From Rhizaria sp. SCN 62-66 (taxonomy: Eukaryota), in contig MEDY01000052.1 of assembly GCA_001724265.1 (NCBI GenBank), positions 124,001-150,938 of the forward strand: a DNA stretch of 26,938 nucleotides, written 5' to 3'. The notes under the pieces are model-generated. The model saw nothing but the letters and a program-made list of their open reading frames with translations, was not told where the DNA came from and searched no databases. Of this stretch, positions 2,329 to 26,047 are shown in pieces. Within the stretch, counting starts at the first letter, position 1. Each line of letters begins with the position of its first letter. Made by a program: the position numbers and the translations under genes.

Positions 2329-5300
2329 TTAGTTCTTGTCTGTGGAAGGAACACCCTCAACTGAAGACGCCGCGACAGCGGGCGCCGCGGCATCAGGGGT
2401 GACCTTCTTGGGGGCGAGCTTAGCCCTGCGTTCAGCTTCCTGCCGGCGAATAACAGTGGCGTTGTTGCGCACAATCATAACGCGCGATGTGTTATCATTG
2501 GCAAGAGAGAAAGGCGTGAAATCACGCAGCATGGCGTCAATGCGATCCTCGTCGCCACCCACGGCGCGGTCAATGCGCCGTTCCTGCACCAGCCGCACGT
2601 ACTCCTGGGCCTCAATGACCAGCTGGTCCTTGTCCGCCTCGGTCGGAAGTTCGTCGTCGACGTTAGCAAAGCGAACGCCGCCGACCTCCTGTGCTACTTG
2701 GAGCACAGACTTGAAGAGAACACACAGCTGCGCGTAGTCGGACTCGACCTCACGCAGACGCAGGAGCTCATCATTAGCCAGCGAGTAAGCCGTGGCAGCG
2801 GCCTGGAGCGTCGCCTCCTCAGCCTCGGCCTTGCTCTTGGCCTCGTCAAAAACCGCGCGCTGCAGACCGGGCACCAGCGTCAAGGCAGGCTCGTCGTCAG
2901 CATCTACAAGGTCGGCCACAGTCAAGTCCTCAAGGGCAACGGGCTCACCGCGCGCTTCGCTAGCACGTGCCGCCGCGGCCTCGGCCAGAGCAGGGTCAAT
3001 GTCAGCGTCGAAGTTGTTCTCCAGACGCGCCAGCTGCGATGCGCGCAACGCGCGCGCCAGCGCCTGTGCGTCAGCAGTCAGTTGCGTGAGGTGCGGAAAC
3101 AGCGGCGCCGTCATTACAGCGTCCGACACGAAGAGCTTGACCGAGCCGTCGCCCAGTGGCTGCGCAGCGGACGCGGATGCGGGTGGCGGAATGCGCGAGG
3201 GACCAATGGGGCCGCGCGAGCTCCACAGACTGGGGCGCGCCGTGGGGCCACGCGAAGGGCGCGACGGCGTACGACCTGCGGTCGCGGCAGCCTCATAGGC
3301 GGCGGCACGAGACGAAGTACGCAGGAACACGTCAGCATCGCGCGGCACGGCGACCTCGGTGCCCGTTGAGTCACCTGCCTTGCGACCTGCGCGAGACCGA
3401 GGACGGGAGGACTCCTTGCTGTCATCCTCACCGTCATCATTGTCGTAATCAGCGGTACGACTGGCGGGGCGCAGCGGCGTGAAGGGCGTGTAAGTGGATG
3501 CGCCGCGCGCTGGCGTCTGCGGCCCGTTGTCGCCAGTGACAGCAACTCCATCGACGCCCACTGGCGGACCGTAGTCGACCAGGCGCTCTCCAGTGGCGGA
3601 GTTGACGACACCCAGAGCGGGCGGCATAGAAAGCACAACAGCTTCGGCGCCCAGCTCATGCATCTCGCGCAGAATGCGCTGCAGGTTGGCATACTTGGCG
3701 TTGGGGTTGACCATCGGCGCGAAGGGCTTGACCTGAACGCGCGGGCGTGCGTCATCAAGCTCATCTTCGTCCGCATCCTCGTCATTGAGACCGACCTCGT
3801 CCTCGTCTTGCACGTCCTCAACCTCATCCTTGGCAACAGCGGCCTGCTCCGCGCGAGCAAGAGCAGCATCGCGCTCCGCGACGGCAGTGTCGCGCTGCGT
3901 CTTGTATTCTTCGATCTCACGACGCAGCTCGTTCGCCTGAGCGCGCGCAGCAGTGGCATCGTCGAAGGCGGCACGGGCCTCGTCGCGAGCCACATCAGCG
4001 TCCTCCTGCGCAATCGCAGTACGGCGCAAGGCCTCCAGAGCATCGGCACGCGCCGCTGCCACGTCGGCGTTCGCAGTCTCAAGCTCACGCGAGAGCTCCT
4101 CATGGTTGTGACTCTCACGCTCACTCAGCAGCTGCTTCTCCGGTGCAGCAACCAGAGCAGACTCGCGTGCACGGGCAAGATCAGACAGCAAACCGGCTTC
4201 GCGCGCGGCAGCATCGACGAGCTCGTTCTCAAGAGCACTTGCGCGCGCGTCCGCTGCGTCAGCACGGGCTTGTGCGCGCTCACTTGCAAGGCGAGACGCT
4301 GTAAGATCTGACTCAAGCTCATCGGCCTTAGCCTCAGCCTCCTTAAGCTTCGTCTCAGCCTCGCCGGCCTTACTATCAGCCTCCTTGAGCGTTGCCTCCG
4401 CATTGGCGGCCTTGGCCTCGGCCTCTTTAAGCTTGGTATCGGCGTCGCTCGCGAGAGCCTCGGCCTTGACAGTCCTGTCATCGGCCTCCTTCAACATCGT
4501 CTCCATATCAGCAATCTTGGTCTCGGCCTCAAGTAGCTTCACTTCAGTCTCATTGGTCTTCGTCTCGGCATCCACAGCCTTCTTCTCACTGTCAGCAAGC
4601 TGTTGCTTGCACTTGTCCAGCTGCGTCTGAGTCTCGTTGCACTTGTGCTCGGCCTCATCTGCACGGGCACCCGCAGCAGCAGCCTTAGCGGCAGCGTCAC
4701 GAGCAGCCTTCTCTGCGGCTACAGTGCGCTCGTCGGCATCAGCAGTACTTTTTGCAATCTCGGCATGAAGGGCCTCTTCCGCCGCCTTAGCACGAGCATC
4801 AGCCTCGCTAGCCTTAACTTCAGCCTCACTAGCCTTGGTTTCGGCCTGCTTTGCCTTATAGTTTGCATGCTTGGCTTCATCTTCAGCAGCAGTAGCCTTG
4901 ATCTCGGCAGCACGGGCCTTTTCCTCAGCAGCATGAATCTTCTCGTCAGCCTGAGTAGCCTTGGTTTCGGCATCGGCAACCTTAGCCTCAGCGTCGACAA
5001 CTTTAGCCTCAGCGTTGGCCACCTTAGCCTCAGCCTCAGCAGCCTTAGCCTCAGCCTCGGCAGCCTTAGACTCAGCATCAACGCGCTTCGAGTCGGCGTC
5101 AGCAGCCTTCGCCGCAGCCTCAGCAATATTTGCCTCAGCCTCAGTGACTTTAGCTTCAGCGTCCGCAAGGTTGGCCTCCGCTTCAGCTGCCCTAGTCTCA
5201 GCGCTGGCCGCCCCCGTCTCTGCCTCAGCAAGTTTGGTCTCAATCTCAGTTGTCTTGGCCTCAGCTTTAACACGCTTAGCGTCGGCCTCAGTAGCCTTGG

Positions 5301-8300
5301 CCTCCGCATCAGCAGCCTTCGTCTCAGCATCCTCAGCCTTGACTTGCGCAGCAGCAGCCTTGAATTCTGCCTCAGCAACCTTGTCCTCAGCCGCGAGCAC
5401 CTTCTCCTCTGCATCAGCCGCCTTAGTCTCCGCAGCGGTCGCGCGGCTCTCGGCCTGAGCGGCTTTGTCGTCGGCCAATACAGTCTGCGCCTCGGCCACG
5501 GCGGCGCGCTCCTCGGCCTCCGCAGCCTTGCGCTCAGCACCGGCGGCAGTAGCCTCAGCATTGGTGGCGCGCTCATTCGCAGCAGCGAGGTTCTCGGCTG
5601 CCTCAGCAGCAGCGGAGTCAGAAGCGGCGGCACGCTGCTCGGCGCCGGCAGTGGCAGCCTCAGCAGTCGCCTTCTCCTCCTCAGCCTTGGCCGCCTTGGC
5701 CTCAGCCTCATCTGCGCGCGCCTCCGTCGCCTCAGCCTTGATCTCAGCAGCCTGAGCCTTGGCCTCAGCCTCAGCCGCGCGTTCGCGCGCCTCGGCCGCC
5801 TTGCGTTCCGCCTCAGAAGCGCGGGCCGCCAGCTCGCCGCCTTGTTCCTCACTCGCAGCCTCGGCCGCGGTGAGACGTTCCTGCAGCGCTGTGGTGGCGC
5901 GCTCAGCCGCACTGAGGCGCTCACGAGCGTCGGCCAGATCGGTCTGCGCGCGCTCCGCGTCCTCACGCGCTCTGTCACCAGCAGAGCGAGCGGCGGCGAG
6001 GTCCTCCTGCGTACGTGCAAGCTCCTCCTGGGCCTGGGCGAAATCCGCAGAAGCCGTGCTGCACTGCGCCTGCAGAGCGTCGCGTTCCACGGCCGCGGCC
6101 TCCGTCGCAGCCTCAGCCGCAGCAAGCGCGTTCGCAGCTTCAGCCAGTGCGGCGTCAGTCTCAATGAGCTTGTTCTCGGCGCCAGTCAGCTGCTCCGACG
6201 CGGCGGCCAGCGCGGACGTCGCCTCAGCCAGACTCGCGTCAGCCGCGGCAGCAGTCGCTTCGGCAGCGGCGGCCTTAGCCTCGGCAGCCGTAGCCTTCTC
6301 GTCGGCGTCGGCAGCCTTTGACTCAGCTGCCTTCGCGCGCTCCTCGGCATCCGCGGCGCGAATTTCGGCTTCCTCAGCGCGAACTTCCGCTTCGGCGCCC
6401 GCGCGCTCAGCCTTCTCAGCGCGCTCCTCCGCAGCGAGAGTCGTGCTTTCGGCAGCTGCCACCTGTTCCATCGCCGCTGCGACCTTAGCAGCAGCGTCCG
6501 CAGCAGCCGCATCAGCCTCCTCGGCCTTGCGCTCAGCAGCAGCCACCTTGGCAAAAGCCTCCTCAGCCTTGGTTTCGGCCTCAGCGAGCTTAGTCTCAGC
6601 CTCGGCAGTCTTCTCCTCGGCCGCGATCGTGCGCTCCGCCGCATCGGCCGCGTGTTCGCGGGCCTCATCGGCGCGCGCCTCGGCCTCGCGAGCGCGCTCG
6701 AGAGCGGCGTCGCGCTCAGACTCGGCGAGCTCGGCGCGCGCCGCGGCCACCTGCTTCTCAGCAAGCACGGCGTCGCTGTCGGCGGCGCCAGCGTCACGCT
6801 CAGCACGCGCCTTGTCGGCCTCGGTGGAGGCGCTCGTGGCGTCGTCACGCGCGATGTCGCGCTCGGTCTCGGCCGCCTGGCGCGCAGCGCGAAGCTCCGC
6901 ACACTCTTCCTCGACAGCAGCAACTCGCTGCTCAGCCTCGGCCGCGCGCACAAGCGCCGCCGCAGCGCGCGCCTCAGCATCAGCCAGCGCGGCGGCGTCG
7001 GTCTCGGCCTGGCTCTCGAGCGCCGTGACACGGGCCTCCTCGGTGGCCATTGCGTCCAGCGCCGCGGCCAGGGCGTCAGTCACTTCCTCGAGCTTGGCCT
7101 CGGCCGCAGCCAGTGCGGTGTCAGCCTCGGACGTGATAGTGCCAGCCTCAACAGTGCGCGCCTCGGAGTCGGCCGCGGTGGAGTCGGCCGTCTCGCGCGC
7201 AGCCTGCACGCGATCGGACGCAGCGCGCGCAGTCTCGTCGGCGGCGACCAGCGCAGCGCCGGCCTCGGTGAGCTTCTTCGCGAGCGCGTCAGCAACCTTC
7301 TCGTGCTCATTAGCGGCGGCGAGCTTCTGCTCAAGCAGCGCCTGCGCCGCCTGCGAAAGCACCTGCTGCTCGAGCAAGTCGGCATCGATCTTGTCGCGCG
7401 CGGCCGTGGCCTCTGCGAGTTCGCGGCGGCACTCGGCGAGCGCGGCCTCGGTCTGCACCAGTCGCTGACTGTCCTCCTGGGCGTCCTCGTGCAGCTCCTC
7501 GGCACGCGAGTCGGCCTCGACCTTCTGCGCCACCATCGCCATCAGACGCTCCTCGAGCTCCTCGCACTTGCGCTCAGCCGCTCTGGCTGCCTCGCGCGCA
7601 GCACTCTCCTTGGCTTCAGCCTCGGCGGTCTTGACATTGGACTCAGTAATCTTAGTCTCGGCCTCAGTAACTTTAGTCTCGGCCTCGGCAGCCTTGGCAT
7701 CAGCTTCAGCAGTCTTCGCTTCCGCCTCAGCGACCTTCGTCTCCGCTTCAGCAGCCTTCGCCTCAGCGTCAGCAGTCTTGGCGTCGGCCTCGGTGGCCTT
7801 CTCTTCAGCAGCGGCGGCCTTGGTCTCAGCAGCAGCGATCTTCTCCTCAGTGGCAGTGACCTTCTCTTCTGCGGCAGAAGCGTTCTTCTCGGCAGCAACA
7901 GCCTTCTCCTCGGCAGCAGCAGCCTTCTCCTCGGCGGCAACAGCCTTGGCCTCGGCAGCCTTAGCGCGCTCCTCAGCCTCAGCGGCGCGCGCGGTGGCCA
8001 CGGCGACACGGTCATCACCAGACTCGCGTGTCTCTGCTTCGACAGCTTTAGCCTTAGCCTCAGCCGCCTCAGTCTTGGCATCAGCAGCAACAGCCTTGGC
8101 CTCAGCGGCAGCGGCACGCGCCTCAGCGGCCTCAGCCTTGGTCTCGGCCTCCTGCGCGCGCGCGTCCGCGGCCTCCACAGCGCGCGCGGCGGCGGCGTCG
8201 TGCTCCTCGCCGCTCGCGCGCGCGGCGTCCAGTTCGGCGACGGCGGCCTCGAGCCGCGTGCGCGCGTCGTCGAGCACGCGCTGCGACTCATCCAGCGCGG

Positions 8301-11300
8301 CCTCACCAGCGGCCATCTGTTCGCTTACACTCGCGGACGCGGTCTCGCGGGCGGCCTCGGCTGCGGTAGCCTCAGCGCGGGCCAGTGCGGCCTCGGCGCG
8401 CGCCGCGGCGGCGGCAGCCTCGGCAGCGGCGGTCGCAGCCTCAGCGGCGACTAGCTCAGTGCGTGCCGCAGCCAGTGCGGCGTCCTTCTCCTCGTTCGCG
8501 GCGGCGGCGTCGGCGGCGGCAGTCTCAGCGGCGGCGCGCGCAGTCTCCGCAGCATCGCGTGCAGCGTCGGCTTCGGCGCGCGCAGTCTCGGCCGCGTCGC
8601 GGGCGCTCTGCGCTGCGGCAGCGTCGTCCTTTGCGGCGGCGGCCACCGTCTCTGCCTCAGTCGCGCGCGCCTCCGCAGCAGCCGCACGCTCCTCAGCGGC
8701 GGCAGCGCGGTCGTCGGCGTCGCCCGCACGGGTCTCAGCGGCGAGCGCGCGCGCGGTGGCCTCCTCGGCGGCCGTCTCGGCGGCGCGCGCCTCGGCCTCG
8801 GCAGCGCGGACCTTGGCGGACACTGCAGCGGCGTCAGCGGCTGTCGTCGCGGCGGCCGCGGCCGAGGCCGTGCTGTGGGCCTCGGAGCCCGCGCGCGAGC
8901 GCGACTGCGGCGTGTTGCGGCCCGACACGGAAGACCGGCGCGAGGACTGCAGTGACGCGACGAGCTTCATATTGTCGCGCGCGACGGCGATTTGCTCGCG
9001 CACCTCGGCGTTGACGGCCTCGAGCTCGGCGCAGCGCAGCGCAGTCGCCGCGGCAAGCGCCTCGGCGCCAGTAGCACGGTCCTCAGCGTCGGCCGCGGCG
9101 CGCACGGCTGCCGCGAGATCCGTCTCGAGTCCGCTGACCAGGTCCTGGATCTGCTCTGCGCGGTTAGAAACCTGTGATTGTCGGTGAAGGAATGAAGAGG
9201 AAAAAATAATCAGTCAAGTTTCATGTGAGAAAGTGATCATTATGATGTGTGTCAAATAACAATAGATAGTCGGCATACTGCGGTGAATGCGTGTTTGTAT
9301 TGAAGTGGTGATGAGAGGTTGGACGCGGCGAACGGGGCGGGGCGCGGCGGCAGGGGCGGCGCAGAGCAGGGAAGTACGTGCGCGGGGACGGACGGGGACA
9401 GGCACGGAGGGAAAGGCTGAGGGGGGAGACAGGCGGGATGACTCTCAGCAGGCAAAGAGGTCCTGATATTCAGAACCATTCCTTTCGCATGCTGAGAGTC
9501 AAATGATCACACATGTGTGTTCTCCCCCGTCGCGCCCCCGCTGGCCCTCTCTTCTCCGGCACGCCACCGTGCAGTTGCCCCGCGACAAGACTGTCCCGCT
9601 CCACACACACGCCTCCACCGCCGCAACCCCGTCCACGCGACGCGCTCCACCTCAGCAGCAACAACGACAAACAGACAAACATTCGCATCAGTTCTCAACA
9701 CGCATAACATGTGTTGATAGAAATCACAGAAACAAACAATATTGAGCATAACGGTAGTATTTAAAAATATGTAAACAGACAGCCACGTCGTGCGGCGAGA
9801 TGTGGGCACGCTGCTGAACGAACTCAGTGCGACGAGTTAACAGCAGCCTCGCGGGCGCTGACGCTCATCTCACGTCTCTCGAGTTCGCTCGACAACATGT
9901 CCAGCTCGCACGACGCGTGTTTCAGGCCCTCGGCCAGTGAACGTACATCCTCAGCAGACTCTTGCCAACGCTACACAAAGGAAAAACAATGTGGGAGAAG
10001 TATGAGCAAATAGAGTGATGTGCATTTAGCGAATAAAGAAAAAACACCACAGAAGTCAGTCAAACAATGTTGCAAAAGCTTCGTACCTTCTTTTCCATAC
10101 GGAGCTCCTTGTAGGCCCCGGCAAGCTCGAGCAGTTGCGCCTTGAAGCGCTCCAGGAGCTCGGTCTGCTCTGCAGCCTCGACTGCGGCGGCCTCGGAGCG
10201 CTTACGCGTGGCGTCGAGCTCCTCCTCCAGGTGGGCCACGCGCAGGGCCTCCTCGCTGTTGACGCCCGCGGCGGCAGCGGCGTCGGCGGCCTTGGCTTCG
10301 GCCGCGCTTACCTTGCTCTCGGCGTCGGCCGCCTTCTTCTCGGCCTCGGCGGCCTTGGCCTCGGCGTCGGCGACCTTTTTCTCGGCCTCGGCGAGCTTGC
10401 TCTCAACGTCGGCCAGCTTGGACTCGGTATCGGCCAGCTTGGTCTCGGCGTCGGCGAGCTTCGTCTCGGTCTCAGCGGTCGCGACGTCGGCGTCCTCGAG
10501 CGCCTGCTTGCGCTTCTCCAGCGCAGTCCGCAGCGCGCCAGACTCGGCCTTGGCGTCAGCCACGCTCTTGATGGCGTCCTCCAGGTCGCCACGCATGTCG
10601 GCGCGCTCGTCGCGCGCGTCGTTAAGCTCGGCGCACAGGTCGCGTCCGGCCTTCTTGAGTCCGGCCAGCGCGCTGTCAACCGCGGCGCGCACGGTCGCGT
10701 CGTCGGCGTCGGGCCTTGTGGCCTCGGCCTCGGGCTCAGCAGTCTTGTCAGCCGTGTCGGTGGGCTGCGAGAGCTGCGAGTTGACCACGCGCTCCAGGTT
10801 GTGCACGCGGTCCCACACGTCGCAGAGGTACTCGCAGAGTGCGCGCCGGGCCGTCTCCGCCTCAGCCGCCGCGGCGGCAGCCTTCTCGGCAGCCTCGGCC
10901 GCGCCCGCGGTCATGGTCTCGCCCTCTGGGTCGGCAGATGCCGGGGCCGCGTTGTCGGCTTGCGCGTTAGCGAGCGCCTCGCGCACCTCGGCGAGCGTGG
11001 CCTCGACGGCCGAGAGTTCCTCACCGCGGCGTTCCGCGGCTTCCTCGCTCGCCTTGACGGCGGCGCGCGCCTCGTCAAGCTCCTCGCGCAGCTCGTCAAT
11101 CTCGCTGCGCGCGGCTGTTAGCGCGGCCTCGGCGCCGGCCAGCTCCTCGCCGCGGCGGTCAGCAGCCTCTTCGTTGGTCTTGACCGCGACGCGGGCTTCG
11201 GCCAGCTCCTCCTGGAGCGCGGCGTTCTCTTCACGCAGAGACTCGGTCTCGGCAGTTGCAGCGGACAACGCGGCCCGGACTTCGTCAACGGCGGCGCGCG

Positions 11301-13810
11301 CCGCGTTAAGCTCCGCAGCAGCCTTAGTGGCAGTGTCGCCGCTCACGGAAGCATCGGGGTCGGTATCCTTGAGCTTGGAAACAAGCTCAGCATGGCGGGC
11401 CTCAGCATCGTTGGCGCGTGCGGTCTCCGCAGCGAGAAGAGCCTCAATGCTCTCGAGTTTGATTTGCGCGGCATCAGCATTCGCATTGGCCTCGACAACC
11501 TTTTGCTCAGCATCGGCAACCTTAGTCTCGGCCTCAGCAGCCTTGGCCTCAGCGTCAGCGACCTTGGCCTCGGCGGCCTCAGCACGCGACTCAGCGGCTG
11601 CAATGCGCTCAGCAACCTCATCGTTGGAGCCTGCAGATGCCTCGGCAGCGGCCTGAGCAGCCTTGGCGGCCTCAGCCTCGGCCTTAGCAGCGGCAATTTC
11701 AGCCTTAGCGGCCTCAGCTAAAGCCTTGGCGGCAGTCGCCTCCTCCTTGGCAGTCTCGGCCTCGGTCTTGGCGACCGCAGCGTCGCTCTCAGCCTTGGCA
11801 GCGCGGTCGTCAGCCTCCTTGCGGGCCTTCTCGGCTTCGGCGCGCGCGTTCTCGGCCTCCTCAGTCGCGCGCGTGGCCGTCTCGAGCGCGACCGTGTCGG
11901 CGCCCGCGAGCGCCTTAGCGGCCTCGGTCTCGGCCTTGGCCGCGTCGATCATCGCCGAGGCAGACTCGACCGCGGCGTTGGCGGCCTCGGCCTCAGCCTT
12001 AGCGGCCTCAGCCTCGGCCTTGGCAGCGGCAGCAGCGGTCCGAGCGGCCTCGGCGTCGTCGCGCGCGTCCTTGCACTCGTCCTGCAGGGCCGCCACGCGG
12101 TGTGTGAGCGTCGCGAAGGCCTGGCGCGTCTTGTGCAGTGTCTCAGCGCGCTGCGTCACGAGCTCGCGCGAGAGCACTGTGAGCTCAACGGCCGAGACCG
12201 CGGCGGCGTCAGCGTCGCTCTTGGCTTCGTCGGCCACGCAGCACTGCGCGCGCGCGTGAGCTGAGCACACCGACACGCCGGCGCGGTCCCACGCCGCGGC
12301 GGGGCCGTCCGCGGCTGCCGCGGCGGTCTCGGACTCGGCGTCGTGTGTGTGCGCGGGGGTCTTGCGGAAGACCACGGTGGCGAGCACGCCCGCACGCGCC
12401 GTGGTAGCGGCGGCGAAGAGCGTGCGCGCGCGGTCGCTGCCGGCCTCCTCGCCCTCGACGTCGGCGCCGCCAGAGACTGACGACGACGACGATGACGACG
12501 ACGACGACGCGGCGATGGGCACGGCGGCGCAGAGCTTGCGCTGCGCAACGCCCACGGGCGCGGTCCAGGTGCCGGCCGACGCAGAGGACGCGGCGCCCGT
12601 GGTGGCGGCGGCGGCGGGGAGCGCAACGACGCGCTGCCAACCCGAAGCGTAGAGGACCGAGGCCAGTGCGGGACCAACCAGCGTCACTGTCTGCACGCCC
12701 AGCGGGCCGGCAACGCCGGCCGCCGTCGCGGCCGCGGGGTCGGCAAGCGCGGCCGTAGCGAGCACGGTGCCGAGCGCGGGGGGCGCTGCGCCGGGCGCGG
12801 GAAGCGCGACGAACGAGAGCGTGCCCGCCGCGGTCGCCACCAGCAGCGCGCCGGACGCGGTCGGGACGACGGCGCGCACGGGCGAGCGGTCGGCGCCGGC
12901 AGGGAGGTGCGACTCGGACAGAGGGTGCGCGGTCGCAACCGTGGGCGCCGCGGCGGAGAGCAAGAAGAGCGAGTTAAGCGCCAAGGGCGCAGCGCCAGCG
13001 AACACAGCACCGTGGCCCGAGCCCGCGCTAGCGCTCGCGGTGACGGCTGTGAGTGCGGAGCAGGCGGGCAGCGGGACCGAGGGCGCGCGACGGTCCATCT
13101 TGCGGCCGCCGCCGACGGCGGGCAGCTGCAGCGTGACGGCGGCGCGTGCGGAGGCCGCGAAGTCCGCGTGGAAACCGTCGCCACTGCGGGTCAGCGCCCA
13201 AACCGTGGGGAGCCCGGCGTCGGCGTCCGCGGCGGTGCTGTGGTCACTGGGCACGGCCGCAAAGGCAACGATGGCGTCGGCGCCGTTGATCTGCGCGGTA
13301 GCGGCGGCCGGGAGCGAGCCCTGGACCGCGCAGGAGACGGCGTCGATCACGGCGACAGCGCCGGAGGCGTAGCCCAGCAGCACGGACTTGTCACAGGTCG
13401 CGATCGCCGTAACAGCGTTGGCGGAGCAAACAGAGCCCGCGGAGGCGTCACCCTCGGCAACGACGCGGATGAGTTCGCTGGAAGTGGCGTCGTATACGTG
13501 CAGAGCGCCGTTCTGATAGGCAACCCACTGGTGCAGTTTGTGGGGGCCGATATTAGAATCTAGATACGATCAAGGAAGATACAGAGAGCAGAATGCTTGA
13601 GATAGTGTAAAGGAATGTAACAGGGTTAAATCAAAAGGACTGATATGCATCTAGAACGATGCATATGTCTCATATGAGGCCAGTAGGTGGGTGTGGAGGG
13701 TGGGAAGCGTAAGATAACGAACCTTTCGAGATTGGAACAGGGACGACGGCCATTGTGGACACTGCCAGGCCGGTCGGCCGGGACTGTACCACAACAGGGT
13801 AATGACCCAT
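2329..13810 (-). CDS. Giant Ala/Glu/Lys-rich coiled-coil protein with beta-strand-rich (WD40/propeller-like) N-terminus; long isoform model join(13810..13723,13559..10087,9970..9947,9171..2329), about 3475 aa
   Basis: The ORFs 10060..13383 and 2329..9105 extend upstream to splice acceptors at 13560 (GTATCTAG|) and 9172 (ATCACAG|). Donors G|GTTCGT (13722), AAG|GTACGA (10086) and GAT|GTACGT (9946) give phase-compatible joins. ATG 13810 sits just after TTTTAG|C. Stop is TAA 2331-2329. Extensive AEAK/ADAETK heptads. The join across 9946..9172 is inferred. Confidence 0.7.
4300..5460 (-). repeat. Degenerate 21-nt (7-aa) tandem repeats encoding coiled-coil heptads (AAEAEAK/VADAETK/LKEAEAK); boundaries approximate
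   Basis: Recurrent gccttagcctcagc/gccttggcctcggc units on +; heptad periodicity in the translation. Similar blocks at about 7620-8140 and 10290-10470. Confidence 0.8.
9172..9946 (-). other. Putative spliceosomal intron (775 nt, GT-AG) of the long isoform
   Basis: Donor GTACGT at 9946; 3' end TGACTGATTATTTTTTCCTCTTCATTCCTTCACCGACAATCACAG at 9172; phase 0 on both sides. Confidence 0.55.
9824..9970 (-). CDS. Alternative terminal exon of the coiled-coil gene (RWQESAEDVRSLAEGLKHASCELDMLSSELERREMSVSAREAAVNSSH*), giving a short isoform of about 1235 aa
   Basis: Polypyrimidine plus TAG acceptor at 9973-9971 in phase 0 with donor 10086; 49 codons of coiled-coil-like sequence ending in TGA 9826-9824; followed by T/G-rich 3'UTR-like sequence. 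Confidence 0.6.
   Translation of the reverse strand, partial: RWQESAEDVRSLAEGLKHASCELDMLSSELERREMSVSAREAAVNSSH
9971..10086 (-). other. Spliceosomal intron (116 nt, GT-AG)
   Basis: AAG|GTACGA ... TTTTTCCTTTGTGTAG|CGT; AT-rich; contains the ORF-track stop; phase 0. Confidence 0.85.
13560..13722 (-). other. Spliceosomal intron (163 nt, GT-AG)
   Basis: AAAG|GTTCGT ... TCTTCCTTGATCGTATCTAG|AT; phase 1 join restores GAT and an open frame from ATG 13810. Confidence 0.7.
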
Positions 13811-14669: not shown

Positions 14670-17627
14670 ATGGCTGACGTCGCCAAGAACTCCCCCGAGC
14701 AGCCGCAGCAGCAGACGGTGCACGTCGTCGGCACCTACATCGTCGGCCCCACCATCGGCAAGGGCTTCTTCGCCAAGGTGAAGCGAGTTGAGGACCAGTA
14801 CCGCAACATCTGGGCCATGAAGTGCTTCGACAAGGAGCGCATCAGCAAGTCCGCCCACTCGCTCAAGCAGGTCGAGAAGGAGATCAACGCGCTGCGTCTG
14901 TGCAACCACCCGAACGTGGTGCACTTCCACGAAGTGCTCGAGGTCGAGAACACCGTCTATCTCATCATGGAATTTGTGCCTCACGGCGAGCTGTTCGATT
15001 ACATCAAGTCGCGCGGTCGCCTGCCCGAGCCCGAGGCGGTGTACCTGGCCAAGCAGGTCGTGTCTGCGCTCGACTACTGCCACCGCTGCGGCATCGTGCA
15101 CCGCGACATCAAGCCCGAGAACGTGCTCATCGACTCGCAGAACAACATCAAGATCGTCGACTTCGGTCTCGCGACGTTCTACCTGAGCTCCGACTACACC
15201 GGCGCCGAGAGCGCGCCGCTGCCGTCGCCCGAGGAGATGGACAGCAAGCCGGCCATGGAGAACTTCAAGCAGCTGCAGACGCAGTGCGGCTCCCCGCACT
15301 ACGCCGCGCCCGAGGTCCTGCTCGGGCTGGGCTACCACGGCCCCTCTGCCGACATCTGGTCGCTGGGCGTCATGCTCTACGCCATGGTCACCGGCTCGCT
15401 GCCCTTCACGGCGCGCACGATCCCGCAGCTCGTGCAGAAGATCGTCTCGGGCGTGTACCGCTTTGCGCCCTTCATGTCGCGCAACGCCAAGCACCTCATT
15501 GGCTCCATGCTGCGCGTGAACCCGCGCGACCGCATTACGATGGCCGAGATCATCGCGCACCCGTGGTTCTCCGAGACCGAGGCGTGGGTGCCGCCCGCCG
15601 TCGCCGCCGAGGCCGAGGCCGCCGCCGCCGCCGCGGGCGCTGCGGGCGCCGTGCCCGGCGAGTCGGCCGCCGTGCGCCTGCTGGGCACAATGGCGTCCAA
15701 GCTCGCCGCCGCCAAGCGTTCCGAGGCGTCTGCCGTGGTGTGCTCGGCGTGCAACAAGGCGCTCTCGGTGCGCCGCGACGCCAAGGGCATGTACGTGCTC
15801 TCGGCGGGGCCCGAGGCGGCGGCGCGCGACGCCGGCGCGGACCTTTGCCAGTGCGCGAACCCGCTCTGGTCGCAGGGCTCTGTCTCGCACAGCGGCAGCG
15901 GCAGCGGCAGCGGCAGCAGCGACGGCAGCAAGCGCAACGTGCTGGAGCTGCCTTCGGTCACCGGCGGCGCCATGACCATGGCCAAGCAGTTCGAGTCCTC
16001 GCCCTCGGCGCAGATGTCGTTTGACGCAGCCATGTTCCGCCCGCCGCCGCCCGTGGACATGACGCGCACGGCGCCGTCGCAGCGCGAGTACGAGATGCTG
16101 CGCGCGTGCGAGGACGGCCAGCTCGACGCCGTGCGCGCGTTGCTCTACGACGCGCCCCCATGCCCCGTGCTCAGCAAGGCCGCCAGCAGCTAGGCCGCGA
16201 GCCGGCGCTCCATGAACGCGCCCGCGGGCGCGGCCTCGCCCACCGCCGCGGCCGCCTCACCCGTCGCTGCCACGGCCACTGCGGCGTCGAGTCCTGCTCT
16301 GGCGACGCCCAGCGAGGCGTCTGAGAAGAAAAAGAACAAGCTCAAGAGCCTGTTCCACTCGATGGCGCACGCCGTGCGCGGTGACACCGACGTGTCATCG
16401 GCCGTGGTCGCGCCCTCCTCGGTGGCCTCCGACGCCGACTCCTCCTCGGGCTCGCTCGCCTCCACCGGCGACGAAGACAGCGACGAGTTTGTCGAGGCGC
16501 TCATGGACTGGCGCCTGCGCGGCACCTGCGCGTGTCCCGACCAGAGCCACCGCCTTGACCTGCGCGCGCGCGGCGCCGACAACTGGACCGCGCTGCACTT
16601 CGCCGCGCGCTCGGGCTCGGCGGCCATCGCGGAGGAGCTGATCCTGTCGTGCCTGCCGCTGGACATCAACGCCGTGACCAAGTCGATGTGGACGCCGTTG
16701 ATGCTGGCCGCCGACAAGGGTCACACGGCTGTGGTGGAGCTGCTGCTTAAGTACCGCGCCGACATCCACGCCGCGACGGCCGACGGCAAGACGGCCATCT
16801 TCCTCGCCCGCGAGCGCAACTTCTCGAGCATCTCGCAACGCCTGACCGAGGCGTCGTCGACGCGCCACCTTGCCGCGCTCAAGCACAACCCCTTCGTGTC
16901 GGCCGACGCGTCGCACGCGCTGACGACGTCTGAGGAGCACGGCGGCCACAGCGGCGGCAGCGGCGGCGCCGAAGACGAGGACGCCGCCAGCCCGGCCATC
17001 CTGTCGATTGTGCACGCCGTGCAGTCGATCAAGGCAGCCACCGAGGCCGCGATCGGATCCTCCGCCGCCGGCTCCAGCAGCGCGGGTGGCGCGCAGGACG
17101 CCGACGCCGTGCGCCGCGCGTGGTTCTCTGCCTCGCCGCTGCAGGCGGACCTTTTCGGCGCCTGCGAGACGGGCGACATCGCGCGCGTCAAGAAGCTCTT
17201 CGAGCTCTCGGTGCAGGCCGTCAACAACCTTCACGCGACGTCGCCCGCGGGCACGCCCATCCCTGCCGCTGAGGTGGACTTTTTTGCGCGCGGCATCGAC
17301 AACTGGTCGGTGATGCACTACGCGGCGCGCAAGAACCACCACAAGGTGCTAGTGCAGATCGTCGAATCGCTCGTGGGCGCCAACGTGCCTGCCAAGAGCA
17401 TCATCGACGAGATCAACGCCGTCACCAAGTCGGGCTGGACCGCGCTCATGATGGCCGTGGACCGCGGTCACGTCGAGTCGGTGCGCCTACTGCTGCGCTG
17501 CGGCGCCGACGCCTCGATCCGCGCCACCAACGGCGAGACCGCGCTCTCGCTCCTCTCCGCCTACCGCAACCAGTCCCAGTTCCCGTACGCGCTTCTCAAG
17601 GACCTCCTCGAGGGCAAGCGCGTCTGA
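14670..17627 (+). CDS. SNF1/AMPK-related (CAMKL; BRSK/MARK-like) Ser/Thr kinase with two C-terminal ankyrin-repeat modules; 985 aa if the in-frame TAG at 16191-16193 (codon 508) is decoded
   Basis: Kinase motifs in about 14736-15569: IGKGFFAKV, AMK, KEI, HPNVV, GELFDYI, HRDIKPEN, DFG, TQCGSPHYAAPEV, DIWSLGV, HPWF. Ankyrin motifs WTALHFAA, WTPLMLAADKGHTAVVELLL, WTALMMAVDRGHVESVRLLL. ORFs 14415..16193 and 16212..17627 are in the same frame, linked by TAG GCC GCG AGC CGG CGC TCC ATG. Coding-like GC content starts at ATG 14670; ends at TGA 17625-17627. Confidence 0.88.
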
Positions 17628-18354: not shown

Positions 18355-18732
18355 TTAAAAGCCGCGAGGCTGCACGCCCCACTGCGTCTGCTGCGCCGGA
18401 GGCTGCTGCTGTTGCTGCGGCTGCTGGACCTGGCCGAACGCGGCGCCGGCACCCGGCTGCACGCCCCATGCCGCTGCGGCCGAAGTGGGCATCTGGTAGC
18501 CCATGCCCATGCCCATGCCCATCGGGTTCATGCCGCCCATCATCATGCCGGGCATGCCGCCCATGCCCATGCCGCCCATGCCGGGCATGCCGCCCATCGC
18601 GGGCATTGCGCCCATGCCGGGCATGCCGCCCATGCCGGGCATGCCGCCCATGCCGGGCAGCGCGTCCATGCCGGGTAGCGCGGCGTCTACACCAGGCAGC
18701 GCGGTGACGCCGGGCAGCGCGCCCATGCCGGG

Positions 18733-18775
<43 letters not shown>

Positions 18776-21700
18776 GCCATCGCGCCGAAGCCCGCCATGC
18801 CGCCAAAGCCGGGCATGGCGCCCATGCCGGCCATGCCCGCGCCCGCGAAGGCCGAGGATGTGGCGCCCGCGGCGTGCGCCTGCGGCTGCTGCTGTTGTTG
18901 CTGCTGCTGGGTGCGGGCGCCCGCGGCGGCGGCGTTGCGCGCGGTGCGCTGCTTATTCTTGTTCTCAAGCAGGCGCTTCATCCCGCCGATGAGCTCCTCG
19001 GGCGTCTTGGCCACGCGGTCAGCGCCCGTGTGGTCCGAGTAGTGGAACCCACCGGGCGTGACACGTGCGCGCTCGCGGGCGGCCTCGCGGCCGGGCAAGT
19101 ACGTGAACTCGACGATGAGCGGCGAGCGAGGATGCAACGAGAGCAGGTACGGCAGCGTCTGCTTGCGCACGCGCGCCTCGCGCTCCAGCTGCGCCTCGAC
19201 CTGGTCGCGCGGGCCGTCGAAGAAGACCTTGTGGCCGACGAGTCCCTTGAGCACGTCCATGACAGGCTCAACGAAGCGCGAGATGACTTCGTCCAGGTCT
19301 TCGTACTCGCGCAGGTACTGGCGCGGGTTGATCGCGTCGCGCGCGTCGCCCAGTGCCTCGGCGTGGCGCTTCACCAGCGCCTCCGTCCCGGGCGGATCCG
19401 TGTCGATCACCAGGCGCCGGCCCAGCGCCGTGGGGTCGCCCGTGGGCTTGTCGTGCTCGGCGATCTCGACGTGCACGAAGCGGTCCTGTGCCACGTTGGG
19501 CACGCGGAACGACGCCACCAGCGAGCGCAGCCCATCAGTCTGCGACGGCCGCAGCACCACGGTCGACGGCGCAGTTGCCGCGACGTGCGCGAGCAGCTCC
19601 TCGGCCTCGGCCTTGGTCATGTTCTTGAACGTGTCGTGCGATACGTTGCGGTGCACGATCTGCACGTCGGCCTGCTTCGGCGGCGGGCAGATATGCTGAT
19701 CGTCGGGATGCACCCACGAGGACCGCGCGGCGTCGAAGTACATATACTTGCCCTCGTGGCGCGCCTGTATCGTCTTAAACACCTCGAGCGACTCGGGGCG
19801 GTTCAGCGACGTGTGCGCCGTCGACAGCCGCACCGACGCGCGCTCGTACTGCACCTGGAAGATCACGGCGCGCACTTCCTGGCCAACCTTAACGCGCTCC
19901 TGGAGCCAGAGCTTCTGGGCCTCCTTGCGCGCCTCGCCCTGGCCGGGGAAATAGGGCGTGGTGGACGACACGCTCGTGATGGGCACGAAGCCCGCCACGC
20001 GGTTCGCCAGCTCCACGACGATGCCGTCGGGCTTGATCGCCTTGACCTGTGCGAGCACGTGCTGGTGCACGTAGAGCGTGTCCTCGGTCTCGCCTGTGCA
20101 CAGCCGGAACAGGTCCTGGGCCGACGGCGGGCCGCGGCGGCGCAGCGCCACGGCGGGCAGCAGGTCAGCGCGCACGCGAAGCTTGGCCTTGGTGGCGTTG
20201 TCGAGCACCTCGGGCACATGCGACGTTTCCTCCAACAGGTCCGCGGCGGCCACGAGGCGCGCGAACGACTCGAGCACCTCCGAAGTCGGCGGGTCCGCGA
20301 ACGGGCGCACGAGCTCGCGCGACGACAGGTAGAGGATATCGAGCATGTGGCGGTTCTGGTTGCGGCGCTGCGCGGCGAAGGCGTGCAGGTCGAATTCTTT
20401 GAGCGTGGATAGCAGCCAGTGGCCCTTGTGCGCGAGACGCGCCATGACGGCGTTGATGCGCAGGTGCATCGTGTCGGTGACGCTCTGGTGCGTGTCCTTC
20501 ATGCGCATGCGCATCGCGGCCACTTCGAGTGAGTCGGCGTCGGCGCCGCGGCCCTCGGCGCGCTCCATGTCGTCGTGCGCCTTGTTCGAGTCCACCAGCT
20601 CGGCCTCCTCGGCCTCGGTCAGCCCCAGCGCAGTCATGGTGCCCTTGCCGCCCTTATCGCTCTTCTTGCGGCCCCGGTCGCCCTTGACCTTCTTGGTCAC
20701 GGGCGGCGGCAGCGCGTTCTGCGCCTCGGCCAGTCCAAACAGCACCTCGAGCAGCAACTGCGCAGCCTCGCGGTAGTGCTCCGGCGGCACGCGCGTGCGG
20801 TCCAGAAACGGCACACGCGCGGCAGCCACGCCCTGGATCGCGGACCCGGCGGAGCGCGCACACACGCGCAGGAAGCCCGCGGCGTTGCGGTACACGGCGC
20901 CGCCCAGCACGCCGTTGGCGGCGCCGTTGGAGGCGGCCGCGGACAGCAGGTCGGCGCGCGTGTTGACCGAGCCCGAGCGGCCGAGGAAGGCCGAGAGCGC
21001 GCGCGCCTTCTGGGGGCCCAGCCCGGGCACGAACTGCAGCGGCGCGACGAGGTGCTGGCGCAGCCCCACGCCGGCCTGCACCAGCGCGTTAACGTCGACG
21101 CCCAGGCGCGCAGTGGCCTGCTGCAGCGCGCGGCGCAGCGCGGCGAGCAGCACGCTGCGCGGGAGCAGGTCCTGGTCCTTGTGCAGACGCAGCGAGAGGA
21201 TCTCGCACGCCTGCTGGCTCGTCGCGCGCGACGACGTCCACAGCGCGGCGAGCGTCGCCAGCGGGTTGATGGCCATGCGGCCAATGGCAGCGGCCTTGCG
21301 TACGAGCGGGTGCGCCGTGGGCATCTCCTGGCGCGAGCGCGCAGAGGTCATGTACACGCGCCCCACCGTCGGGTCCGCCAGCTCGAACTTGAGCCAAGGC
21401 TGGTCGTACAGCACCTTGGACTGCAGGTCCGTGATGAAGCCGCTCGAGTTGGGCGTGGCCGCGTCGACGAGCACGAGCGCGGGGCGGTACGTGGTCATGA
21501 TGTCGATCAGCACGCGCACGTCCATCTCCTTGCTACGCTGCACCTCGCCCGCGGCCTGGATGCGCGACCCGGCTTGCGAGCCGCCCTGGAGCGCGAGCGC
21601 CTGCATGCTGCGCTCGTTGGTGCGCGTCTTGAAGGCCGTCAGCACGGCCTGCTCCATCACATCGCCCTGCGAGTTGAGCACCACCAGCGACAGCGGCTCG

Positions 21701-24700
21701 CGGTCGTCGCCCTGCACGATCGACGCCACGCACCACCCGCGCGCGCCGCCCAGTGTGAGCCCACGCACGCGCGCCGAGCGCCGCTGCTTCTCCGCGCGCG
21801 CCTCGTCGCGGGCCGCGCGCCGCGCGCGCTGGCGCTCGCGGGACGCCACGGTGTCGTCATCGTCGTCGTCGTCGTCGAGCGCGTTGAAGGCGTCGTCCTC
21901 GGAGTCCGAGTCGCTCTCGCCGCCGTCGCTGCCGCGGAGCGCGTCGGGATCAGACAGCTCCGTGTCGTCGTCCGCAGAGTTCGAGCCTGCCGCGGCGGCG
22001 GTGCCGGGCGCGGCCCTGGGCTCCTCCTTCTTGGTGAGCTCGGCGTTGGCGCGGGCGGCGCGGCGCGCGGCCACGCGGGCGGCGCGCGCGGCGCGGCGCG
22101 TGGACGCCGCGGCGTCGAGGGGCTCTGTGAGCAGCATAGGCAGCAGCGCCTCGGTGGCGATGCGCGCCGACAGCAGCCGGTCAGCCGAGAGACGCACTTC
22201 GTCGAGCAGCAGGCGGCGCACGCTGGGCAGCAGGAACGTCATCACGGCCTCCTGCATCACCAGCGCGCGCGCGCGGGCCAGCCACGCGCCCTCGTTCTCC
22301 GCCTCGGCCTCCCCGTCAGCGCCGGCAGAGGCGCTCGCAGCCGCAGCCGCAGCCGCGAGCATGGCGCCCGCGCGCAGCCCGAGGCCGACGACGGGCTCGG
22401 CCGCGAGGTGCGGGCGCGCGTGCGCGCCGCCCTCGGCCAGCGCGCTGCACACGCCAGCCAGCTCGTGATCCGCGGCCGGCACCAGCTCAAAGGCCCAGTG
22501 CGGGCGGAACGTCCCCGCCTGCGGCAGCGCGGCCAGCGTCTCGGCGTCGAGGTGCGCGTGCATGGCGGCGTACTCGTCCGCCGACATGGGCGTCTGTCGC
22601 TGCGGCGTGTGGTGCAGCACGATCGACACGTACTTAGCCTGCGCGGCGGCGAAAATCTTGGGCAGCAGCTCCGGCGCGGCGGCCAGGTGCGACAGCGGCA
22701 TCGACGCCACGCGGCGCGCCACAAACAGCCGGTGGTTCCACTCCAGCTCGGCCACGCCCTTGGGCAGCGGGATTGTGGAGAGACGCATCTGCGGCGTGAG
22801 CGACTCGGACAGCGAGGTCCGCAGCACAGGGTCCTGCCCCACGCGCGAAGCCGCGCGGCGCCGCGCCGTCAGCAGCACGTCCTCGGGCGACGCGAAGCGC
22901 GGCCCCACGAGTGACTGCGCCAGCACGGCCACGGGCGGCAGCGGCGCCGCGGGCGGCGCGCCCGCGGCGTACGGGTTCTGTTCGCTGCGCTCGAGGTAGC
23001 GGCCCAGCGCGGCTGTGTAGTCGGCCCACGCCGCGGCGAAGGCGTCGGCGTCGGCGCAGGGCACTGCGGCCGCGGTGGTAACGACGCGCTGGCGCACATT
23101 GGAGCGCAGCGCCGCGGTGCTGAGGCCGAGCAGCACGTCGGCGATAATGTCGATCGCGGCATCAACGTGCGCGGTCGACGCGCTCGCCGCCAGCAGCTCG
23201 GGCCGCGCGTACGCGAACACGTGCTCGCCCGCAGACGACGAGACCGCAGAGGGCTCGAGCGTGGCGGACGACGGAGCCAGGGACGCGGCGGCGTCGGCGC
23301 TGCCCGCACTGGCCTCCGACTTGACGCTCTCGGGCTTGACCGCAGGGGCGCGGCGCGGCACGTCGCCCTCGCCCACGAGCTCCTCGTCGTCTGCAGCGGC
23401 GGCGTCGTCGCCGGCCAGGTCGACGGCCTCGAGGGCGCCGGCCTCGGTCTTGACCGCGGCGGCGGCGGCCGGCTTGGCGACGGACTCGTCGATGTCGTAG
23501 CCGAGCTCGGCCTTGACCTCGGTCTTAACGCCGTCCGCGGCCGCCTGCGCGGCGACGAGCGCGGCCATGCCGTGGAACGCAGTCAGCCGCAGGAGGCGGC
23601 GCTTCTCCGACGCCGCGATGAAGCGGCGCGACTCACGCAGCTCCAGCTCCGTGGCCGCGCGCGTCACCGCGCGCCACAGCTCGGCGTCGTGGCCCAGCGA
23701 GAAGTCGCCCGCCACCAGCGCGCCGGCCGCGCGCCCGGCGGCAACGGCGCGGCGCATCAGCGCCCACTCTGAGGCCGTGTACCCGCGGCCCGCAAGCGCC
23801 ACCACGGGCGCGCGCGCGGCCGCCGCGGCGACGGCGGCGACGCTGTCGGCGGCCTCGACGTCCGAATCGGCGTCCGCGCCAGCAGACGCGGCAGTGGCAC
23901 TGGACGTGAGAGGGGCTGCGGCTGCGGCGGCGGGCAGGGCGTCGAGCACGCGGGGCAGCGGGACGAAGTACGGGTCGATGGGGAGCCCCGAGAGCGAGGC
24001 CGGCGGCGCGGGCAGCGGCGCGCGCGCGGCGGCCTAGCGGCTCTCGACGAGTTCCTTCAGCGTGGTTGCGCGCGTGAGCATGAGCGCGTGCCAGCGCTCG
24101 TCGGCCTCGTCGAGCGTCCACACGTCGGCGTCCGACAGCGAGGCCGCGGGGAGCCCCGGGAAGCAGAGCTCGTCGCGCTTGTACGCCACCACATACCCTG
24201 GGTCGAGCCGGTCGCGGTGCAGCAGCCCCAGCAGCCAGGCCACGGCCGCGCGCGTGAGCTCGGAGCGCGGGGCCGCGGCGACGCCCGGCTTTGCGGCGGC
24301 CGTGACGCCCACGCCCAGCGCGGCCGCCGCGGACCCCACCGAGGGCTGCAGCGCCGTGTCCCAGAGCCACTGCGCCTCGGCCTCGAGCGAGAGCTCGCGC
24401 ACCACAGGGTCCATGCGCTGCGCCAGCTCCTGCCCGGCCGGGTCCGCCGCCAGCGCGCGCGCCAGCACGCGCTGCGCAAAGCCCGCGGCATCGGCGGCGG
24501 CGTGCCGGTGGTGCTGCAGCAGCGCCACCTCGCCCGCGCCCGCCGCAGTCGCCACGGCTTCGCGCGCGGCGGACATGTACACGTCCGTCTTGGCGCTGCT
24601 CACGCCCGCGGCCACGCTGGCCGCCTCAGCGGGCGACAGCAGCGCGGGCACGGTCGGCACCGTGTCCACCAGCAGCGGCGCGGGCTGCGGCACGGCGCGC

Positions 24701-26047
24701 GAGAGGTCGAAGCGCTCGGGGTCAGTGCCGCGCGCCTCGGCGTCCTCGGCTGCGAGCTTGTCCAGCACGCCGGGCGCCAGCGCAAAGCCCAGCTCGAAGG
24801 AGCGCGCGTCGATGCCCAGCGCGGCCGCCACGCTCGCGCGCAGCGCCACGCGCGCCTGCAGCCGCTCGGGCACGTCGTGCTCCACCACTGCGCGCGCGGC
24901 CGCCGCAGCCTCCTTGGCGCGCTCGGCGCGCACGCGGGCCGCGCCGCTAAGCACGGGCGCCACGGAGGTCGACGCGGCGGCCGCGGCCGCGGCGGCCGCC
25001 ACGGTGTCAGCGTCGGCCGAGGCGGCGGCCGCAGCGAGCGACTCCTCCTGGCGGCCGAAGAGGCCCTCGACGTCGCCGCCGAACATGGCCGACAGGCGCT
25101 GCTGGTCCGCGAAGGAGAAGCGCGAGAAGGTTGAGGCGCCCGTGACGCGGCGTTGCCCGTCCTCGGCGGCGTCGTCGTCCTCGTAGCCGTCCTCGTCGTC
25201 GTACTCGCCGTCGCCGTCCTCGTCATCGTCGCCGGCACCCGCGCGGCGCACGCGCACGCCGTCGGCATCGTAGGCGTCCTCGTCGTCGCCGTCGCCAGCG
25301 CCGCGCGTGGCATTGGCGAACTTCTTGTTCTTGGGCTTGAGCTTGGCTTCGTCGTCGAGGCCGTCAAAGATGGCGCCGGCGCCGAGGCGCGAAGCCAGCG
25401 GCGAGCCCAGATCGGCCTCTTCCTCGTCGTCGTCGTCGCCGCCCAACACGCGCGACGACGCCGTCTTGGAGCGCTTCGTGGGCGCCGCGGCGGCCGCAGC
25501 GGAAGTATCAAAGCGCATCATGTCCTCCTCTTCGTCGTAGTTGACGTCGAACATCTGCTTGCGCAGGTCCTCCTTGCGCTGCTTCTCGGCCTGACGCTCG
25601 GCCGCGAGCAGCCGCTCCTCAAGGGAAATGTGATCTTCATTTACAAGTGTACGCTTGCGGACAACCACCGTCTCGTCCTAGAGACAGGGGGTATAGAAGA
25701 AATACAGAAATTAATGACGGTGCGGAAGAAGGCAACGACGGAGAAGGAAGCGCGAAGAAGAAGAGCGGGGAGGGTATGGCAACGGTTAGAGAAAGCAAAA
25801 TCAGGCTCACCAAACAAGCAAATAACACACAATCAGAGGAGACTGAAGGGTAATGATACACTGCGATAGAAGAAATGTGATGTTTTACTGCAAAATTGAA
25901 GCTCGAAGCGTTATACGCCCCATATCTGGGGGCGTGGGAAGCTGATTGAAGCACAGGCGGGGTGGCAGCGAAGGGTTATGGTGGGTGTTCAAACAATCAA
26001 CATACCTCATCATCGGCGGGTCGGTTGGTGTCCTGCGTCGACGACAT
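18355..26047 (-). CDS. SPT6: Transcription elongation factor/histone chaperone Spt6; join(26047..26006,25677..18355), 2454 aa if the in-frame TAG at 24036-24034 (codon 562) is decoded
   Basis: Acidic N-terminus; HDVPERLQAR, EAEAQWLW, YVVAYKRDEL and DERWHAL before the TAG. After it: FASPEDVLLTAR, YqgF-like region, GVDVN, LQFVPGLGPQKA (HhH), LDRTRVPPEHY, S1 domain (GFVPITSVS) and tandem SH2 (HDTFKNM...VVLRPS...EYEDLDEVISRFVEP). First exon MSSTQDTNRPADDE|GTATGT; stop TAA 18357-18355. Confidence 0.93.
18497..18840 (-). repeat. Met/Gly/Pro-rich repeats (MPGMGG, MGG) in the Spt6 C-terminal tail, flanked by short polyQ runs
   Basis: Tandem gccgcccat and gccgggcat units on + (9- and 18-nt periodicity). 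Confidence 0.9.
25678..26005 (-). other. Spliceosomal intron of SPT6 (328 nt, GT-AG)
   Basis: GAG|GTATGT ... TTTCTTCTATACCCCCTGTCTCTAG|GAC; pyrimidine-rich; phase 0. Confidence 0.85.

Follow-up and report, generated by a model that had tools for sequence, protein, structure and literature searches.

In-Frame TAG Codons in SPT6 and a Kinase–Ankyrin Gene of a GC-Rich Wastewater Eukaryote

The stretch of DNA analyzed here, called the window throughout, spans 26.9 kb of a eukaryotic genome. It carries the 3′ end of one gene plus four large genes, among them SPT6 and a gene for a protein kinase with ankyrin repeats (Table 1). Two of the four complete large genes, these same two, are each interrupted by exactly one TAG in frame, and neither contains a TAA or TGA within its frame. 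Both TAGs are real, recurrent, in-frame codons, and they lie within genes that relatives carry as single chains and that are under purifying selection on both sides of the interruption. Translation of UAG as a sense codon is probably the most economical account of both.

An SPT6 Gene Interrupted by One TAG

Judged from its sequence, the gene appears to be a normal SPT6, the family of a eukaryotic transcription elongation factor and histone chaperone, broken by a single TAG at the C-terminal end of its helix-turn-helix (HtH) domain. The HtH, YqgF, HhH, and S1 domains are collinear in the order of a Tex-like core, and the tandem SH2 is C terminal. The domain order is like that of the SPT6/bacterial Tex family (HTH_44, YqgF, HHH_7, S1, SH2_2; PDB 7oop, 6ted, 3psi), but the SPT6 of the window is very divergent within this family (best identity about 35%). 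It has long insertions rich in Ala, and Gly, Met, Pro, and Gln abound in its tail. Exhaustively searching 1.84 billion representatives with phmmer gave 415 matches at E ≤ 0.001, and with the same program the part downstream of the TAG matched the SPT6 chains in the PDB, that of human SPT6 included, at E values of 9e-21 to 2e-18. Upstream of the TAG, the HTH_44 match spans residues 448–536 of a 544-residue open reading frame (ORF) and positions 29–105 of the 117-position profile. The tail (18358–19020, minus strand) runs for ~200 residues past the tandem SH2 and is rich in poly-Gln, GMGGMPGMG-type repeats, and Gly/Met/Pro-rich sequence. This stretch drew many spurious contig matches, with a peak in depth at 18495–18939.

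A sequence-only reading of the window had noticed the TAG within LKELVESR-TAG-AAARAPLPAPP, and its description of the site was largely borne out. The TAG is in the same frame as the ORF upstream (24034..25668) and the one downstream (18355..23949), and the frame remains open past it for 1,892 codons, up to the TAA at 18357–18355. No ATG follows directly; the first in frame is 93 codons on (23757), and the start at 23949 in the ORF track is a GTG. There is also no spacer or intron-like dip in GC at the site. The 150 nt on the upstream side of the TAG have a GC content of 0.71 and the 150 nt on the downstream side one of 0.80, with GC at third codon positions (GC3) of 0.96 and 0.88, respectively. 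Since the composition does not shift there, compared with a GC content of 0.48 in the predicted intron of the gene and 0.38–0.54 in the spacers, the site is unlike the introns and spacers of the host.

Termination at this codon would cut off the YqgF, HhH, S1, and tandem SH2 domains, as the sequence-only reading had warned, and Pfam finds all of them downstream. All SPT6 domains are in one polypeptide only if the TAG at 24036–24034 is translated. The view that one gene has been interrupted is upheld by the homologues. When residues 381–640 of the exon 2 translation were run against 163 SPT6-related proteins, the HtH region was matched in 22, and in all 22 it shares a chain with the remainder of the protein. 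The protein from Paulinella chromatophora (P0017) and the best match (P0015) both have the HtH in one chain with YqgF, HhH, and SH2. The query segment contains YVVAYKRDELCF...DVWTLDEADERW, and the matched homologues have a corresponding diverged segment. What did not hold is the placement of the TAG within the conserved core of the protein, as it is instead found at the C-terminal edge of the HtH domain, where a variable linker starts.

The 544-residue upstream ORF (P0014), which ends at the SPT6 TAG, is on record letter for letter from three public contigs. A search for short protein fragments bridging the SPT6 TAG returned only this upstream ORF itself, and none of the contig pieces listed from other runs covers the site. 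The 1,864-codon downstream ORF (18355–23949, minus strand) is absent from both protein collections searched, in which the upstream ORF is present; in such GC-rich DNA, gene callers may have favored long but spurious ORFs of the other strand (e.g., 20575–22914, plus strand).

The predicted intron near the start of the gene is AT-richer than the exons and therefore provides a model for what host introns look like. A TAG that shows up in the raw frame just upstream of "DETVVV" is the acceptor of this intron and not a codon. A low-depth contig from a polyA RNA run has variants inside the intron (25841, 25855), which remains a prediction. Contigs of the polyA RNA run X7 fall on both parts of SPT6 (24506–24806, 22096–22656, and others), and the depth of this run is zero in two promoter-side bins that are covered by DNA runs; neither is counted here as evidence of transcription.

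A Second TAG in a Kinase–Ankyrin Gene

An in-frame TAG is not peculiar to SPT6. The kinase–ankyrin gene, a case missed by the sequence-only reading, forms one 985-codon frame with a single TAG when that codon is written as X, and 477 codons lie downstream of it. With a second such gene 8 kb away, the question becomes how the organism reads TAG generally. The two halves of the kinase gene are on record as separate proteins identical to the window (P0168, 507 amino acids; P0167, 471 amino acids), each from six contigs. Contigs from two other studies cross the kinase TAG with no differences (X3, 15930–17511; X4, 15930–17299).

An orthologue from another metagenome (P0169, on a 2,664-nt contig) has 70% identity over 665 residues. 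It is one ORF, with the same MADVA start, the kinase domain, the column of the TAG, and then the conserved beginning of the ankyrin part, "DWRLRGTCAC...LDLRAR.ADNWTALH". That P0169 is uninterrupted indicates that the ancestral gene was a single ORF and that the copy in the window needs its TAG translated to give the same protein. Look-alikes of the kinase–ankyrin protein were also found in a protein atlas. The search with the kinase was limited to proteins of <638 residues and could thus overlook a fused protein of ~985 residues from a close strain. A contig from X7 (16196–16682) starts three bases past the kinase TAG, which may be coincidental or mark a branch point of the assembly graph.

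Selection and Shared Context at the TAG Sites

Single-letter differences between the window and the contigs of other runs come to 88, and the counts given here refer to the 40 that were classified. Coding sequence holds 25 of these, 24 of them synonymous, and synonymous changes occur after each of the two TAGs. Every one of the 22 variants in the kinase–ankyrin gene is a synonymous third-position change, and three of these lie downstream of the TAG. The three variants listed for SPT6 are all located after the TAG, and two of them are synonymous. This predominance of synonymous change indicates purifying selection on both halves of both genes, in frame through the TAGs.

The two TAGs sit in the same 10-mer, GCTAGGCCGC, which occurs at 16189–16198 (plus strand) and 24029–24038 (minus strand) and has no other exact copies in the window. 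A random pair of codons, one from each gene, shares flanks of two bases before and five after with p = 5.5e-4, a post hoc value for two sites. The shared 10-mer could be a decoding context, a mutational hotspot, or a product of chance in Ala-rich sequence. CTAGG is the expected deamination product of methylated CCAGG, which is where the idea of a hotspot comes from.

Nothing around either codon looks like programmed readthrough, which would call for a stimulatory 3′ context or an RNA structure. Folding of the 121 nt around each TAG gave RNAs that are not stabler than shuffled sequences (z +0.61 and +0.89), and we know of no readthrough motif resembling GCCGC. The base after each UAG is G. A G in this +4 position makes a strong termination context and does not promote readthrough, so passive leakiness is unlikely to account for passage through these codons.

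UAG as a Probable Sense Codon

The host probably decodes UAG as an amino acid in normal translation while UAA and UGA terminate, an interpretation held with some confidence but short of conviction. A tRNA, presumed to have the anticodon CUA, would read UAG; UAA and UGA would keep their role in termination, and UAG would have lost it. Full-length SPT6 (about 2,450 residues) and the full-length kinase–ankyrin protein (985 residues) would then each be made from one mRNA. The reassignment would be young or weakly used, with UAG rare and at tolerant linker positions. The codons themselves are observed; we infer that a tRNA decodes them, that this extends to the whole genome, and that UAG no longer serves as a terminator. 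Suggestive of such a loss, none of the five gene ends in the window is a TAG (TGA 620, TAA 2329, TGA 10060, TGA 17627, TAA 18355). No spacer or intron-like dip in composition is found around either in-frame TAG. UAG is used twice in about 6,800 codons, as compared with 192 for CAG, 578 for GAG, 18 for TTG, and 18 for CAA.

Several points weigh against UAG as an ordinary sense codon. There are only two TAGs, both in poorly conserved linkers and without a consistent amino acid. Under a standard code, the lack of TAG at five gene ends would arise by chance about 1 time in 3 to 8, by our estimate for a TAG usage of 20–35%. TAG is also ~10 times rarer than a neutral codon should be when set against comparably AT-rich synonymous codons (CAA 18 vs CAG 192; TTG 18). 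The shared flanks (p = 5.5e-4) hint that these are special sites and not ordinary sense codons. A search of the window for tRNAs found no tRNA gene, and no RNA read or peptide bridging either TAG was seen in the data, which are at the level of contigs. The rarity of UAG and its linker positions fit a young reassignment, yet they also keep the alternatives alive.

Alternative Explanations

The same facts could be explained by an ambiguous code, where UAG ends genes elsewhere and is read through internally in the context GC-UAG-GCCGC, either as in the position- or context-dependent codes of Condylostoma and Blastocrithidia or as programmed readthrough that acts on many genes. We consider this unlikely, though it deserves to be kept in view: The two TAGs do share two bases before and five after, TAG is very rare, and five gene ends are too few to argue against TAG terminators. 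The shared context, however, was noticed post hoc at two sites, both in Ala-rich sequence with GCC and GCG as its most frequent codons. Neither site has a stabilizing RNA structure or, with G at +4, a base that promotes readthrough, and an essential core placed behind a leaky stop would require readthrough to be near complete. A related and similarly slim prospect is an incipient, context-bound change of the code in a deep lineage, possibly near Rhizaria, with UAG translatable only in GC-UAG-GCCGC and in flexible linkers.

Nonsense mutations in null or decaying alleles, either recessive and heterozygous in a diploid or backed by intact paralogues, are an improbable explanation. Each gene has one TAG, in a tolerant linker, and TAG is the stop most accessible by a single mutation in GC-rich codon usage, where CAG, GAG, AAG, TCG, and TAC are abundant one-step neighbors; a comparison at the level of contigs is also unable to reveal minor alleles. 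Mutation of this kind would nonetheless have had to hit two of four genes, including SPT6, an essential gene in those model eukaryotes that have been tested. The split ORFs recur unchanged in three and six contigs and in studies dated 2015–2025, five of the six listed variants after the TAGs are synonymous, and the 1,892 and 477 codons downstream have neither a frameshift nor a further stop. Exact look-up of fused alleles, trying seven residues for the kinase TAG (Q, E, L, K, W, Y, S) and three for the SPT6 TAG (Q, E, L), found none, a weak result in that any other difference defeats the look-up.

Very unlikely is an alteration of the UAG in the transcript, such as an A-to-I edit that gives UGG (Trp). 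Premature UAG codons are edited in this way in filamentous fungi during sexual development, and the U-A-G triplet fits the fungal preference for U at −1 and G at +1. Known fungal editing is stage specific, whereas SPT6 is needed constitutively. The host does not group with fungi, as the proteins closest to its SPT6 come from metagenomes and from Paulinella (35% identity), and there is no hairpin signal at the sites.

There is equally little to recommend split genes or reinitiation, with separate polypeptides and the ankyrin part starting from the ATG at 16212 and the SPT6 core from that at 23757. An ATG does occur six codons past the kinase TAG, and gene callers record the parts as separate proteins. 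Against this, no intergenic spacer separates the parts, while the real spacers are 727–1,708 nt long and AT-richer, and coding periodicity is unbroken across the TAGs. The orthologue P0169 is fused, the HtH-bearing homologues of SPT6 are all single chains, and after the SPT6 TAG the first ATG is 93 codons off.

Least probable of all are tiny in-frame introns that contain the TAGs or an error of sequencing or assembly: While GTCGAGAGCCGCTAG (15 nt, SPT6) and GTGCTC...GCTAG (27 nt, kinase) start with GT and end with AG, the one clear SPT6 intron (328 nt, GTATGT...CTCTAG, GC 0.48) is quite unlike these candidates, the 27-nt candidate would remove the VL of a CPVL conserved in P0169, and ORFs recurring in three and six contigs, along with the contigs of other studies, speak against error.

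Candidate Amino Acids

The sequence-only reading had tentatively assigned Gln to the SPT6 site by lining it up with human SPT6. The alignment itself was reproduced, as phmmer sets the TAG opposite a Q of the human protein ("lkelvesrX" against "ltrlfekmQ," chain 7oop_M). The stretch taken alone scores −0.6 bits, with the TAG read as X and contributing nothing to the score. The assignment to Gln fared less well, given that the column is uninformative. Alignment of homologues with MAFFT (23 rows, i.e., the query and 22 homologues, with three pairs being near duplicates) gave a column of 16 gaps, two E, two R, and two V, which lends Gln no support. Conservation ends a few residues before the TAG, and the column opens an indel-rich linker. 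With 16 gaps and a mixture of E, R, and V, the SPT6 column names no residue.

The kinase column has E in P0169, inside the diverged linker FEATHNEAKKNK. By precedent the decoded residue could be Gln, Leu, or Glu, and the two sites in the window name none of them.

Relationship of the Host and Known UAG Codes

The closest relatives of the SPT6 protein are metagenome proteins with about 35% identity, and the best named one is from Paulinella, a rhizarian. A FastTree phylogeny of the SPT6 core was built from 616 columns, with 27 proteins chosen from the 166 SPT6-related ones and the query. It groups the query with P0016 (0.98), then P0015 (0.99), then P0004 (0.93); the group so formed is placed next to Paulinella with weak support (0.85). 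The placement gives a hint, from one named neighbor in the tree, of a rhizarian affinity of the host. Green algae came top in a word-based search but are found elsewhere in the tree, and this apparent kinship is probably due to common GC-rich composition. Scans of contig sets (metagenome sets with SPT6 and P0015, genome sets with SPT6 and the kinase, and viral sets with P0169) yielded no further contigs of the host or a relative. A wastewater protist with a change of the UAG code was not found among the literature matches listed.

Very few lineages outside ciliates are described as having a nuclear code that has turned UAG alone into a sense codon (PMC5304391, PMC11687900). One is exLh, a member of the Sainouroidea within Rhizaria, in which UAG is reported to encode Leu, with 384 in-frame UAG codons spread over 71 genes, most of them at columns of conserved Leu, and with UAA (56) and UGA (15) as stops (Panek et al. 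2017, PMC5304391). On the reading preferred here, the window would be like exLh in that UAG is the sole stop converted to sense while UAA and UGA terminate, and its SPT6 is adjacent in the tree to Paulinella, also a rhizarian (0.85). It differs in having two UAG codons in four genes, at unconserved columns, with no sign of Leu or of kinship with the Sainouroidea. If the rhizarian affinity holds, Leu merits the same weight as Gln as a candidate.

A second precedent is the fornicate Iotanema spirale, in which UAG is given as Gln, UAA and UGA are stops, and UAG codons are scarce (PMC5304391). The likeness to the window would lie in the reassignment of UAG only and lies in its scarcity. Iotanema is an anaerobic metamonad and unrelated, however, and its Gln assignment drew on many conserved columns, an approach that is impossible for the window.

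Phyllopharyngean ciliates are described as using UAG widely, as Leu in three uncultivated taxa and as Gln in Hartmannula and Trochilia, with suppressor tRNA genes identified (McGowan et al. 2024, PMC11687900). Like these, the window would show UAG reassigned independently of UAA, and like these it came to light via metagenome-derived genomes. There is nothing ciliate-like about the window itself, which combines exons of ~73% GC with long spacers between genes. Condylostoma, Parduczia, and Blastocrithidia nonstop are described as using one codon both as sense inside genes and as a terminator. The window would resemble them in that a stop is read as sense within genes, and a dependence on context or position is conceivable given the shared 10-mer. 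It differs in that none of its five gene ends is a TAG, and TAA and TGA behave as plain stops.

Gene Content and Host

The host is a GC-rich, intron-poor eukaryote of wastewater and bioreactors. The window is near identical to contigs from bioreactor and wastewater metagenomes, which makes the host an uncultured organism. Exons have a GC content of 0.66–0.73 overall and a GC3 of 0.83, and the spacers between genes (727–1,708 nt) have a GC content of 0.38–0.54. Sampled words of the window are present at 0.90–0.99 in runs X1–X3 and at 0.34–0.45 in X4, X5, and X7. Another strain or a sister species is present in X5 and X7; it departs from the window by as many as 20 differences within 318 nt of kinase sequence (14852–15377, and elsewhere too), and all of the kinase differences listed for it are synonymous.

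The other two large genes encode coiled-coil proteins rich in Ala, Glu, Lys, and Thr, both with degenerate "AEAKAA(D/E)AE(T/A)K" units. A Pfam search with them found no family apart from a weak Tropomyosin match (E 0.0015). Their ORFs do not start with an ATG, which makes short 5′ exons likely, as in SPT6.

Table 1. Genes, gene parts, and domains located in the window
Feature	Position	Strand	Details
Coiled-coil gene 1	2329–9213	−	Ala/Glu/Lys-rich; about 2,260 codons
Coiled-coil gene 2	10060–13569	−	Ala/Glu/Lys-rich; about 1,110 codons; N-terminal half nonrepetitive
Kinase–ankyrin gene	14670–17627	+	Pfam Pkinase and Ank_2
Kinase–ankyrin, upstream of TAG	14670..16190	+	ATG (MADVAK...); Ser/Thr protein kinase; Pfam Pkinase, E 2.5e-69
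In-frame TAG no. 2 (kinase–ankyrin)	16191..16193	+	Context GC-TAG-GCCGC; linker between kinase and ankyrin repeats
Kinase–ankyrin, downstream of TAG	16194..17627	+	Linker and ankyrin repeats; Pfam Ank_2, E 3.2e-40; TGA 17625–17627
SPT6 gene	18355–26047	−	Pfam, phmmer, PDB chains
SPT6, predicted exon 1	26006..26047	−	ATG and 13 codons (MSSTQDTNRPADDE), then GTATGT; read from sequence
SPT6, predicted intron	25678..26005	−	328 nt; GTATGT...pyrimidine tract...CTCTAG; GC 0.48; phase 0 on both sides
SPT6, exon 2 upstream of TAG	24037..25677	−	Acidic N-terminal region and HtH domain; 547 codons
SPT6, HTH_44	about 24061–24327	−	Top Pfam match; E 0.0034; 18.3 bits, under curated cut-off of 35
In-frame TAG no. 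1 (SPT6)	24034..24036	−	Context GC-TAG-GCCGC; codon 548 of exon 2
SPT6, downstream of TAG	18355..24033	−	Linker, domains, tail; TAA stop 18357–18355
SPT6, YqgF	about 21241–21699	−	Pfam; 32.7 bits, just under cut-off of 35
SPT6, HhH (Pfam HHH_7)	about 20866–21204	−	33 bits; cut-off 27
SPT6, S1	about 19819–20067	−	Pfam; 32.1 bits; cut-off 22
SPT6, tandem SH2 (Pfam SH2_2)	about 19027–19671	−	E 1.3e-24; 87.2 bits; cut-off 27; residues 2000–2214

Significance

Gene callers split both SPT6 and the kinase–ankyrin gene at the TAG, so proteins of this host are misannotated in public catalogues. If UAG is indeed translated as sense, the host would add a further case to the codes that have reassigned UAG only, in a GC-rich wastewater eukaryote that recurs across the runs of several studies. 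UAG would still be very rare in such a genome, which would bear on how reassignments begin. Should the change prove to be incipient and bound to its context, it would be a stop-to-sense reassignment caught at its earliest stage, perhaps to a residue other than the usual Gln.

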